From: a virus
DNA length: 64,000 nucleotides
Reading direction: 5' to 3' (one strand)
Virus record (IMG/VR): IMGVR_UViG_3300030004_000009
Coordinates: 112,704-176,703 of that record
The notes beneath the pieces were generated by a model. That model saw nothing but the letters and a program-made list of their open reading frames with translations, was not told where the DNA came from and ran no database searches. The translations under genes and the position numbers were made by a program. Shown here in pieces: positions 10,609-36,720 of the stretch; positions within the stretch are counted from its first letter, which is position 1; the number at the start of each line of letters is the position of its first letter.

Positions 10609-10685
10609 TGCTCCCTCCTGAATTTGAATCAGGGACCTCCAAATTATGAGTTTGTTGCTCTAAAACCGGACTGAGCTAAGGGAGC
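10609..10685 (-). tRNA. tRNA-Met or Ile2 (CAU)
   Basis: GCTCCCT/AGGGAGC acceptor, GCTC/GAGC D-stem, CTCATAA loop, CCTGA-TTCAAAT-TCAGG. Confidence 0.9.
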
Positions 10686-21177: not shown

Positions 21178-21363
21178 TTTAATAAGTAGTAGTTATACAG
21201 TAGAAACACCGATCAGCATTTAGATTATAAGTGAGCAGGATACTGATCCTCGAGGAATTTACCAGCTTCAGAGACTCATAACCAGCATTACCTTGTACTT
21301 AGATTAACGGCTACTTAGCTATTACTACTGCTTTCCTACTATTTCTTTTTGATTGTTTTGAAG

Positions 21364-21780
21364 TGGAGTGTATGGGATTCGAACCCATGTCTTACTCATC
21401 ATTATAAAGCTTTCTACATGTTTAACTCAATTTTTATCGATAGTAGAGTTCCATCTATTTAGTTTTACATTCTAACAAATGTTTAAAAGCTTCTATTACA
21501 TTGCAGCTTAAATTAACTTTACATATTCCGCGTTTGGCCATAATTGTATGTTCAACTATCTGATTACACAGCCTAAGATCAGTATACTTTAACCCCAGAT
21601 TAAGGGTCCACTATAACACTTTGTGTTAAGCTGCAATCCTCATAGAGGAAGTCCGGCTTGTCATGGAGATAACTTTACAGTTGCCATTTGAAATTTTGAA
21701 AGTTCTATTTAAAGTGGTCTCCTCACAACCCACTACATGCTTACTTTACTCTGTACGAGCAATCAATACCTGCACACCCC
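21364..21780 (-). ncRNA. ssrA: tmRNA
   Basis: Acceptor GGGGTGT/ACACTCC with G3-U wobble, T-arm ATGGG-TTCGAAT-CCCAT, tag frame 21685-21626 encoding GNCKVISMTSRTSSMRIAA-stop. Confidence 0.92.
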
Positions 21781-29695: not shown

Positions 29696-29717
29696 GACTA
29701 TTTGGTTTAAATGTAAG

Positions 29718-30001: not shown

Positions 30002-30382
30002 TTATTGCCACTCTCTTCCTTTTATTAATGCAATACCTAACGGTTTTGAATCTACTACAAATTGCCATGTGTAATCTGTAACCATCCATAACTTATCACA
30101 CGTTAAATCATAAGAACAAAATGTAAGTCCATTTGAAGTAGCTTTATAATTATAAAGCTTCCATCTTATTTGATCTTTATCTCTAACTAATTGTGTTAAT
30201 TTATAGATTATTTGGTTATAAACCACGTTATCAATTTGTATTGTGTTGCGTTTAATTTCAGTACTATATGTTGGTTCTGCTCTACTCATCTTCTTTTGAG
30301 GAAGTTGTAAGCCCTCGAACTGTTCATTAATTGGCCATAAAACAAATAGAAAAACGCTTTGATTAATTAGTGGTTTTTTCAT
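30002..30382 (-). CDS. Hypothetical protein
   Basis: 126 aa ORF. Confidence 0.55.
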   Translation of the reverse strand: MKKPLINQSVFLFVLWPINEQFEGLQLPQKKMSRAEPTYSTEIKRNTIQIDNVVYNQIIYKLTQLVRDKDQIRWKLYNYKATSNGLTFCSYDLTCDKLWMVTDYTWQFVVDSKPLGIALIKGREWQ

Positions 30383-30399: not shown

Positions 30400-30458
30400 T
30401 TAGCTGATGGCTCTTAGCTGATGGCTCTTAGCTGATGGCTCTTAGCTGATGGCTCTTA
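30400..30458. repeat. Perfect tandem repeat (TTAGCTGATGGCTC) x4
   Basis: Four identical 14-mers without spacers. Confidence 0.95.
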
Positions 30459-30463
30459 AAGTA

Positions 30464-30489
30464 AGGAGTTAGTATTGCTACTAACTCCT
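30464..30489 (-). repeat. GCAA-tetraloop hairpin family, copy 1
   Basis: AGGAGTTAGTA-GCAA-TACTAACTCCT. Confidence 0.8.
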
Positions 30490-32802: not shown

Positions 32803-33121
32803 GATTATTTGGTTTTTATGTTGATTATTTGATTTCTTTAGAATAAACATACGCTTGCTACTTACTTTTACATGAACGTGTACACATTATGTTAATAACC
32901 TAAATAGTGTTGATACTGCTTTATAAATGGAAACCCATTTTGTAGAACTATACCTGCAATTAAGCAAGGCTACAAGAATATTTTTCGTATGTTTAGTTTT
33001 TAAAGCTCAACCTTTGCTATAAAAGGTTGAGCCGAGTGTTGTATTACCATCTTTAATATTTCACCACCGTTAAAGACCTTGTCCAAACAGAATGGTATTG
33101 ATGATTTGTAAGCTGGCATGA

Positions 33122-33568: not shown

Positions 33569-33593
33569 GATGATTATTTGGTTACTTTTTAAT

Positions 33594-34522: not shown

Positions 34523-34548
34523 AGAGTTAGATATTGCTATCTAACTCT
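34523..34548 (-). repeat. GCAA-tetraloop hairpin family, copy 3
   Basis: AGAGTTAGATA-GCAA-TATCTAACTCT. Confidence 0.8.
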
Positions 34549-35035: not shown

Positions 35036-35080
35036 GATCTTTGATTATTTGGTTTTTATGATTATTTGGTTTCTTTTTAA

Positions 35081-35112
35081 TTGAGAGTTTAATATTGCTA
35101 TTAAACTCTCAA
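35081..35112 (-). repeat. GCAA-tetraloop hairpin family, copy 4
   Basis: TTGAGAGTTTAATA-GCAA-TATTAAACTCTCAA. Confidence 0.8.
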
Positions 35113-35403: not shown

Positions 35404-35811
35404 GATCTTTGATGTTTTTAATATGATGTTATTTGGTTATTTGGTTATTTACTCTTTTGGATATTAACACTCCCTTACTCCTATTTTATTTAAACAATTG
35501 TTTAAAACAACTTTTAATAGTCTGAAAGGTGATTTGTGGTTTTATTTTCATTCATCGTAATATTACGATTGATCGAAAAATGATCATTTTTGAACGAAAT
35601 TGAGCACTTAAATTTACACCACCAAGTTAAAAATAGACTTAGTTCCGTTTTTAGACTAATGGAGTGGATGTGTACTACAAGCTTGTATTTGATCTACGAG
35701 ATTCTCGTAATTGAAAATAACCGCTATGTCGATCGACTATTCCATTCATTTCAATTACAAAATTAACACTCTCAAGTCCATACTAGACATGAGAGTAAGA
35801 AAAGAGAAAGC

Positions 35812-36246
35812 TTACACTTTCTCTTTTCTTTTAGCTGGTTGTTTAACTTCATTTGGATCTATTTCAACATATACCCATTTGTCCTCACCCTCTTTTGCAT
35901 CATGTTTCCATGTTGCTTTATGAGTTCTTTTCCATTCTTCATACTGTTCAAATGTCATATCTACAGCTCGATTAGTTGTAGGTTCACTGTGTATCATTGT
36001 AGTATAGCCGTTATAGTTCTTTATAACAATTATAAATAATGGGACATCAAGTTCGATAACAGAGTAAAGTTTATCTGAATGTTTATAGAAAGGTTCAGTT
36101 CTAACATTTGCAGCTGATGCTTTATTTAAAGCACCTTGAATTACATGATTTGCACCAACTGTAACATTTAATGATAATACCTGAGGCATATCTATTACAT
36201 TAAAAGAGAAAGCATGTACTGGATCAATAACTAGTAATATCTTCAT
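35812..36246 (-). CDS. Early hypothetical protein downstream of the hammerhead ribozyme
   Basis: MKILLVIDPV...; start revised to ATG 36246 (144 aa). Confidence 0.65.
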   Translation of the reverse strand: MKILLVIDPVHAFSFNVIDMPQVLSLNVTVGANHVIQGALNKASAANVRTEPFYKHSDKLYSVIELDVPLFIIVIKNYNGYTTMIHSEPTTNRAVDMTFEQYEEWKRTHKATWKHDAKEGEDKWVYVEIDPNEVKQPAKRKEKV

Positions 36247-36260
36247 GATGTTGATTATTT

Positions 36261-36315
36261 GGTTAAGACACAAACTGTGTTTCGGCTATTCTTTTTTAAG
36301 CCTCATCAGTTAACC
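36261..36315 (-). ncRNA. Type I hammerhead ribozyme
   Basis: GGTTAA-CTGATGA-GGCT(11 nt)AGCC-GAAA-CAC(5 nt)GTG-TC/TTAACC; full catalytic core, three stems, GUC cleavage triplet. Confidence 0.9.
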
Positions 36316-36557
36316 TTACTTCTTAATTAAAACTATGCTTACACATTACAAGGTAAGACTGATATCTTACTTTATAAGTGACTGTTCCTTGACTTCTATG
36401 CTTACACATAGAGTTACTCCCTCCTTGACTTATACAATATCATTGCACACCGTTTACGCGCGTAGTTCCTTAATGGAAATGCTACGTGATACTAAAATTG
36501 CTACACTATCAATATGTAATGATACACGAAGCGATCTTTAGATCCACGCGTTGTATG

Positions 36558-36620
36558 CCTTGTATATCGAAGAGCGATAGACCTTACATATCGAAGAGTG
36601 ATAGACCTTGCATATCGAAG
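36558..36620. repeat. Imperfect 24-bp tandem repeat x2.6 (CCTTRYATATCGAAGAGYGATAGA)
   Basis: Copies start at 36558, 36582 and 36606. Confidence 0.85.
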
Positions 36621-36678
36621 CGTAATGAAGAGCGAAGTTAAAATCGAATGCGAAGCATGAGTACTGTTATACCAAACT

Positions 36679-36708
36679 AAACTATGAGCCCTTTCGGACC
36701 CATAGTTT
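36679..36708 (-). terminator. Strong hairpin after the first minus-strand gene
   Basis: AAACTATGGGTCC-GAAA-GGGCTCATAGTTT. Confidence 0.6.
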
Positions 36709-36720
36709 AATCAACGCTTA

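Follow-up and report, generated by a model that had tools for sequence, protein, structure and literature searches.

RESULTS

A hammerhead motif between two co-directional phage genes

We analyzed a 64,000-nucleotide (nt) stretch of viral DNA, positions 112,704 to 176,703 of the 176.7-kb IMG/VR record IMGVR_UViG_3300030004_000009 (here called the window, with all coordinates given in its numbering), and focused on a hammerhead ribozyme at 36261 to 36315. The hammerhead is encoded on the minus strand, in the sense orientation of a co-directional gene block that forms part of the nonstructural leftward block of a crAss-like genome. Upstream of it on the same strand lies the open frame P0001 (36721 to 37308, 195 amino acids [aa]), and downstream lies P0002 (35812 to 36246, 144 aa, ATG at 36246 to 36244). 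Between P0001 and the ribozyme is a 405-nt region (36316 to 36720, minus strand) that contains no open reading frame (ORF) and is predicted to be structured RNA. The predicted cut would leave a 20-nt leader (36247 to 36266, minus strand) on the P0002 mRNA.

Read along the minus strand from 36315 to 36261, the motif is GGUUAA-CUGAUGA-GGCU(UAAAAAAGAAU)AGCC-GAA-ACAC(AGUUU)GUGU-C/UUAACC, which both the sequence itself and the family model R1 (described below) identify as a complete type I hammerhead. The 5′ strand of stem I, GGUUAA (36310 to 36315), is preceded by a family-conserved A at 36316 and followed by the catalytic core C3 to A9, CUGAUGA (36303 to 36309), which is invariant in the family alignment A1. 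Stem II, GGCU/AGCC (36284 to 36302), carries an 11-nt loop, U-AAAAAAGAA-U; nucleotides 36302 to 36299 pair with 36287 to 36284 (G10.1-C11.1, G-C, C-G, and U-A), with a pairing probability in context of 0.98. The core residues G12, A13, and A14 (GAA, 36281 to 36283) lead into stem III, ACAC/GUGU (36268 to 36280), which includes the A15.1-U16.1 pair, joins 36280 to 36277 with 36271 to 36268, and is closed either by a 5-nt loop or by a fifth A-U pair and a GUU triloop. By the hammerhead consensus, the predicted scissile bond follows the GUC triplet, between C17 (36267) and U1.1 (36266), so that the 3′ strand of stem I, UUAACC (36261 to 36266), would become nucleotides 1 to 6 of the cleaved mRNA.

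Each core position of the hammerhead is present (C3, U4, G5, A6, N7, G8, A9, G12, A13, A14, A15.1-U16.1, and C17), all three helices pair fully, and G10.1-C11.1 closes stem II. Both ends of the RNA exit through the open stem I while stems II and III end in loops, which is the type I topology. The initial annotation had proposed a complete type I hammerhead on the minus strand that cuts 20 nt before a gene it took to be early, and its description of the motif held in full: every core nucleotide and pair is in place, the coordinates are exact to the base, and the predicted cut at 36267/36266 agrees with the hammerhead consensus and would yield the product UUAACCAAAUAAUCAACAUC-AUG, beginning 20 nt before the ATG.

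Comparison with chance expectation and existing covariance models

In AT-rich DNA, a sequence may resemble the hammerhead consensus by coincidence, or a promoter may happen to overlap it, and we considered both possibilities for the motif. The surrounding sequence is indeed AT rich and of low complexity, the fold energy of the hammerhead is unexceptional (z = −0.9), its Rfam scores fall far under the gathering thresholds, and ACAGTTTG within stem III resembles the −7 box of Bacteroidota promoters. Against a chance origin, our own hammerhead descriptor found a single match in the 177-kb genome. Across 150 Markov-simulated genomes of the same dinucleotide makeup, the loose descriptor matched 0.3 times per genome, and at the observed stem lengths it matched in none of the 150. 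The covariance model R1, built without the window copy, scored that copy at 60.9 bits (E = 1.6e−11 over the window), with the runner-up match in the window at 15.5 bits, and the spacing, leader, and flanking residues all fit a strongly covarying family. The promoter candidate in stem III was rejected, as ACAGTTTG does not match TAHHTTTG: the near-invariant T and A are missing, and a G stands at a position that is almost never G (PMC6847099). No Bacteroidota −7 box (TANNTTTG) was found on the minus strand between 36247 and 37400, and sigma-70-type matches near the hammerhead were no commoner than in shuffled sequences. We therefore judge coincidence to be very improbable, and sequence comparison confirms that the hammerhead is genuine rather than a chance look-alike.

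The initial annotation had looked to Infernal searches with the Rfam hammerhead models for confirmation, and these did not provide it. With the models of clan CL00010 (RF00163, RF00008, RF02275, RF02276, and RF02277) and RF03152, no hammerhead was called at gathering score anywhere in the window; in local searches (E ≤ 10), the best scores were 16.3 bits for HH9 (gathering score, 52) and 17.4 bits for RAGATH-1-hammerhead (gathering score, 56.3). The same models at gathering score also detected nothing in 13 other loci of the family, which hold about 25 clear copies. Because relatives are missed as well, the failure points to a limitation of the models and does not count against the motif.

The window copy belongs to a family of phage hammerheads

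IMG/VR was scanned with a pattern covering the core and the inner pairs of stem I, which gave at least 119 loci. The family counts given here cover the matches listed, which comprise 136 copies in 117 distinct contexts. From these, 111 distinct copies, with the window copy left out, were aligned (A1), and R1 was derived from this alignment. Standard pairs fill 99.4% of the stem cells of the 111 copies, and the covariation score is 0.518, compared to 0.111 with shuffled partners and at most 0.075 with slid partners. Stem II has three free pairs and stem III has four, each of them showing four to five standard pair types, and the outermost pair of stem I, which the search pattern did not fix, alternates between G-C and A-U. 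The sequence conservation of stem I in A1 arises in part because the pattern fixed its inner pairs. A relaxed scan of the same loci yielded about 57 further copies with other 6-bp AU-rich versions of stem I (GAUUAA/UUAAUC, GUUAUA/UAUAAC, GGUUUG/CAAACC, and GUAACU/AGUUAC), along with allowed variation at position 7 and the cut triplets GUA, AUC, and CUC. These comparisons indicate that stem I is a true helix with a fixed length of 6 bp.

The hallmarks of the family are this AU-rich stem I, a 4-bp stem II whose loop is closed by U...U, and a stem III that varies freely; in two members (loci L016 and L077), stem II carries large insertions. Eleven copies in two other phage records scored 39 to 73 bits with R1, a range that includes the window copy. 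The latter also keeps the U...U closure of loop II and the conserved A residues on either side of its 6-bp stem I.

The position of the family relative to genes is equally regular. Among the matches listed, the first ATG follows the cut site by 18 to 24 nt in 95 of 117 contexts, and in 99 of 117 it starts an ORF at least 40 codons long. The ATG of a long ORF falls 8 to 35 nt downstream of the cut in 84% of contexts, compared to 14% for random positions on the same strand. Upstream, the nearest ORF of at least 50 codons stops inside the 5′ strand of the ribozyme or within 10 nt of it in 77 of the 117 listed contexts, in most such intercistronic cases at the UAA of GGUUAA or a UGA of CUGAUGA; the other contexts include long gaps. 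A stop codon in or against the 5′ strand leaves no room for a promoter, which places the ribozyme within a polycistronic RNA. Where the stop codon lies in stem I or the core, a terminating ribosome would sit on the 5′ half of the ribozyme. The 5′ strand provides stop codons in two of the three frames (loci L003 to L121).

Genes downstream of the hammerheads are small (median, about 70 aa) and mutually unrelated: 96 of the encoded proteins matched 20 different PHROGs, none of them common to more than three proteins. This diversity suggests that the module is generic and not bound to one gene. On some contigs, a copy precedes nearly every gene. One such locus (L119; record G001, about 2.8 to 7.6 kb) has ten hammerheads in about 5 kb, each followed by a leader of the AAACAAAACAAAA type, and is a clear natural case of an operon punctuated by ribozymes. 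The window copy resembles the family in its score and its 20-nt spacing, but 405 nt separate it from the end of its upstream gene, an arrangement shared with a minority of contexts.

The large terminase of the window has named-host relatives only among Bacteroidota phages (crAss-like, Bacteroides, Flavobacterium, Tenacibaculum, and Azobacteroides phages), and its best identity, 41%, is to an uncultured gut phage. Flavobacteriia phages are the closest cultured relatives of two of three sampled family contigs. A copy scoring 48 bits is present in Flavobacterium phage elemoC, with its predicted cut site (near MT497067.1 position 16957, minus strand) 28 nt before an annotated gene; on the opposite strand, an annotated "hypothetical protein" overlaps this hammerhead (MT497067.1, 16937 to 17044; locus L123) and is probably a gene-calling artifact. 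Weaker copies, at 37 to 42 bits, were found in Pelagibacter podophages. Among 185,579 prokaryote genomes (species), only three matches to the family were detected, all on short contigs of metagenome-assembled genomes. Judging from these collections, the family is abundant and confined almost entirely to phage contigs. In the literature searched, we found no report of a hammerhead in crAss-related or Flavobacterium phages.

The leader carries initiation signals of the Bacteroidota type

The leader that the cut would create in the window lacks a Shine-Dalgarno (SD) sequence and has A at −3, −6, −12, −13, and −14. In 98 leaders of the family, A is found at −3 in 82%, at −6 in 58%, and at −12 and −13 in 80% each, and an SD-like 4-mer is present in 8 of the 98. 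Long ORFs of the window genome are similar, with an SD-like 4-mer in 8 of 123 and A at −3 in 62%. Using ribosome profiling and reporters, Baez et al. (2019, PMC6847099) identified A at −3, −6, −12, and −13 as positive determinants of initiation in Flavobacterium johnsoniae, whose ribosomes work without SD pairing and whose primary transcripts have a mean leader of 33 nt. Two loci of the family (L011 and L049) have leaders with GGAG or GGAGG, on contigs that encode a Pelagibacter- or cyanophage-like portal. The leader thus seems to follow the initiation style of the host, with the same module bearing SD-type leaders in phages of hosts that use SD.

In the window, the leader also contains one copy (36253 to 36264, minus strand) of a recurring phage leader motif, AACCAAAUAAUC. 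This motif has six exact copies on the minus strand and 29 matches with up to two mismatches, compared to 15.7 expected. On the minus strand, the string AACCAAATAATC has six exact matches from 30.2 to 36.3 kb. Of these, four lie 0 to 28 nt before an ATG, as do three further copies with one or two mismatches; the exact copy at 30217 has no ATG nearby downstream. In addition to the copy at the ribozyme, AACCAAAUAAUC stands 0 to 28 nt from the ATG of five other minus-strand genes (29696 to 29707, 32803 to 32834, 33572 to 33583, 35043 to 35071, and 35427 to 35446), and none of these five has a ribozyme upstream in Rfam searches at E ≤ 5. AACCAAAUAAUC is frequently preceded by AUUAAAAAG, and sometimes occurs in tandem.

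The initial annotation had noticed that the 3′ strand of stem I overlaps a leader motif shared with other early genes; this overlap is real, and the motif does recur before other minus-strand genes. AACCAAAUAAUC may be the standard translation-start leader of the phage or part of a phage-specific promoter, and the 3′ strand of stem I appears to have been grafted onto this standard leader.

The RNA upstream of the cut and other features of the window

Cleavage would leave the 405-nt region between P0001 and the ribozyme on the ribozyme-containing 5′ fragment. Directly after the P0001 stop codon is a 14-bp hairpin with a GAAA loop (36678 to 36709), followed by three 24-nt tandem repeats (36542 to 36620) and two copies of the 14-mer CTATGCTTACACAT (36333 to 36346 and 36396 to 36409). 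The 474-nt noncoding gap as a whole folds better than 100 of 100 shuffled sequences (z = −3.0). Its sequence occurs only once in the genome, and searches gave no relatives of it. Phage phi14:2, which is also crAss-like, transcribes the long intergenic stretches of its early region above most genes, and these RNAs persist (bioRxiv 10.1101/2020.03.07.982082); by analogy, 36316 to 36720 may be a noncoding RNA like those abundant early RNAs.

These features bear on a second interpretation, in which the cut mainly serves the upstream RNA: cleavage would form the 3′ end of the approximately 400-nt structured RNA or of the P0001 message, with the retained ribozyme fold and 2′,3′-cyclic phosphate acting as a protective end and the leader arising as a by-product. 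The ORF-free gap, with its fold statistic, repeats, and strong hairpin, would suit such a role, as would the abundance and persistence of the phi14:2 RNAs. What the family conserves, however, is the distance to the downstream ATG, while the upstream context varies between a gene stop (77 of the 117 listed contexts) and long gaps, and the gap sequence itself has no detectable relatives. We consider it unlikely that the upstream RNA is the chief beneficiary.

Searches gave no relatives for either flanking gene. P0001 gave no Pfam or PHROG match and no tblastn match. P0002 is an ORFan that belongs to no Pfam or PHROG family, has no relative in IMG/VR, and finds no homologue but itself among 5.8 billion protein clusters. 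The locus had no blastn match in 50,697 phage records.

Elsewhere in the window, two near-identical 26-nt perfect hairpins, AGAGTT.AATATTGCTAT.AACTCT, are located at 34523 to 34548 and 35084 to 35109; the latter stands just past a gene end and just before a leader motif. These hairpins may be terminators or processing sites, the counterpart of the hammerhead at other junctions. We also observed a phage tmRNA gene at 21361 to 21780 (minus strand; Rfam, 63.3 bits) and a fourth tRNA gene at 10609 to 10685 (minus strand; anticodon region CAU; Rfam, 60.3 bits), neither of which was called by ARAGORN, and a perfect 14-nt tandem repeat, TTAGCTGATGGCTC, in about 4.5 copies between two tRNA genes (30400 to 30469).

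DISCUSSION

Proposed role of the hammerhead

The window holds a genuine type I hammerhead, one of a phage family that fuses a compact ribozyme to a short leader directly before a gene, and we regard the mechanism built on this reading as probable. In this proposed mechanism, the leftward block would be transcribed through the ribozyme, either as part of the P0001 message or from a start within the 470-nt noncoding gap, and the RNA would fold and cut itself between C36267 and U36266. Hammerhead cleavage produces 2′,3′-cyclic phosphate and 5′-OH ends; the 5′ fragment would retain the ribozyme body and the cyclic phosphate. Stem I is weak, only 6 bp with a predicted free-duplex energy of −4.1 kcal/mol, and would let the two products separate. 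The pairing probabilities of the stems in context are typical of the family. The downstream mRNA would then begin with a 5′-OH at −20 and carry only an unstructured, A-rich, SD-free initiation region of the Bacteroidota type (A at −3, −6, −12, and −13). As a result, the message of the gene would be detached from the structured RNA upstream and given a fixed, context-independent leader, and the ribozyme would mark the border between the approximately 400-nt structured RNA and the first gene after it. We infer transcription through the element, cleavage in vivo, release of the products, and any gain in translation or stability.

The initial annotation had stated that the cut creates the leader of the gene. 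Comparison favors this statement, given that the 20-nt spacing fits the 18 to 24 nt typical of the family (95 of the 117 listed contexts) and that the leader is A rich; a cut at this distance from the start codon would yield a product whose short leader includes the whole initiation region. The annotation had further suggested that cleavage unmasks the initiation region or stabilizes the transcript. Predicted accessibility of the initiation region does rise after the cut, from 0.59 to 0.74 in the window and from 0.63 to 0.735 in 97 relatives. As for stabilization, a benefit from the 5′-OH end would follow by extension from 5′-monophosphate-dependent decay in general.

Several observations weigh against the proposed mechanism. 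A virtual cut at −21 in 149 genes that have no ribozyme gives an equal gain in accessibility (from 0.55 to 0.65), so that structure modeling lends no specific support to unmasking. Loop II of the window copy exceeds the family norm, U-NRR-U, by 6 nt, all of them A, and no relative in IMG/VR has 7 to 12 nt between the two U residues of this loop. To cleave fast at the Mg2+ concentrations of cells, natural hammerheads depend on a tertiary contact of loop II with stem I, and the long loop could weaken that contact. Stem III is short and AU rich, with a pairing probability of 0.64 compared to a family median of 0.95. With regard to genomic setting, the window hammerhead is the only R1 copy in the whole 177-kb record, and it follows 400 nt of noncoding RNA rather than the gene stop codon that precedes most relatives. 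Finally, no copy was found in the three nearest crAss-like genomes tested (MT835470.1, cr113_1, and the Azobacteroides phage), which indicates that the hammerhead is not a general trait of crAss-like phages; it may have arrived together with the ORFan P0002.

Part of this evidence would also fit a hammerhead that is decaying, slow, or active only under certain conditions, acquired as a cassette with an ORFan gene and now contributing little. The unique expansion of loop II, the weak stem III, the single copy in the genome, its absence from the closest crAss-like genomes tested, and the ORFan downstream all agree with this possibility, and Perreault et al. noted slow, possibly regulated variants in phages (PMC3088659). 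Yet no core nucleotide or pair is missing, the conserved A residues at its flanks and the U...U closing loop II have been kept, the score lies in the family range, and large stem II insertions are tolerated in L016 and L077. We therefore regard this reading as improbable, somewhat more so than a cut made chiefly for the upstream RNA.

We also weighed the possibility that paired ribozymes, the window copy among them, excise a small RNA that is circular or mobile, a role that hammerheads have in viroid-like RNAs and retrozymes. Only one hammerhead is present in the 177-kb record, no other ribozyme class was detected at E ≤ 5 in the surrounding 8.7 kb, and members of the family lie in the sense strand between genes. 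Since a single ribozyme is all that was found, an RNA circle or mobile element was rejected as extremely improbable.

A bolder extension of the leader-fusing role, which we put forward tentatively and hold to be rather doubtful, is that the hammerhead and its A-rich leader of about 20 nt may constitute a portable translation-start cassette, with self-cleavage required for efficient initiation in phages of SD-blind Bacteroidota. The rationale is that ribosomes would load best on a free, unstructured 5′ end at about −20. The 18- to 24-nt spacing, the weak stem I, and the built-in stop codons would then be adaptations, and the window copy would act in the same manner at the point where a long structured early RNA gives way to the first gene.

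Comparison with known systems

Perreault et al. (2011, PMC3088659) described hammerheads of prophages and phages that flank individual genes or short runs of genes, and proposed that they process long transcripts. Phage hammerheads cleave during transcription and in Escherichia coli, and cleavage was shown for several clustered prophage examples (PMC3088659). The present family shares with that set a canonical core, a sense orientation between co-directional phage genes, and a proposed role in cutting long phage transcripts into gene-length mRNAs. It differs in residing in lytic-type phage contigs (3 matches in 185,579 prokaryote genomes) and in combining a fixed 6-bp AU-rich stem I with a cut-to-start distance of 18 to 24 nt and a leader of the Bacteroidota type. 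The characteristic sequence of the family was not found in the accessible part of the supplements of that study or in the other literature searched. The Rfam hammerhead families share the catalytic core and three-helix junction, but none of them reaches its gathering score on the window copy.

The closest parallel in gene arrangement is HHphage of the haloarchaeal viruses HF1 and HF2, in which a hammerhead lies 13 nt before the start codon of an early gene and a mapped 5′ end falls within 3 nt of the cut (PMC3088659). Like the window copy, HHphage thus stands a few nucleotides ahead of a start codon; in contrast, it is a variant with an insertion in the core that needs very high salt, it occurs in another type of virus and another host domain, and it is a single case rather than a large family.

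Two further systems place a self-cleaving ribozyme ahead of a coding region. The synthetic insulator RiboJ (PMC6206723) strips the upstream RNA context just before the translation start, as proposed here, but is engineered, keeps a hairpin before the SD site, and is used in E. coli; the phage module is natural and has a predicted unstructured leader without an SD sequence. Lopez-Galiano et al. (2026, PMC13725137) describe type I hammerheads in viral 5′ untranslated regions whose self-cleavage is tied to translation of the downstream ORF. Those systems belong to eukaryotic (fungal and plant) RNA viruses with cap-independent translation and another mode of ribosome loading, and their hammerheads have no sequence kinship with the phage family.

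Phage hammerheads that flank genes have been known since 2011, and the window copy adds little on its own. A 2019 review considered the purpose of phage and bacterial hammerheads unresolved (PMC6765202). The family overlooked by current Rfam hammerhead models is large, and it sharpens this question: it couples a fixed cut-to-start distance with leader signals measured in F. johnsoniae, for which a reporter system is available (PMC6847099), and it has a homologous copy in a cultured pair, Flavobacterium phage elemoC on Flavobacterium sp. BAL314.

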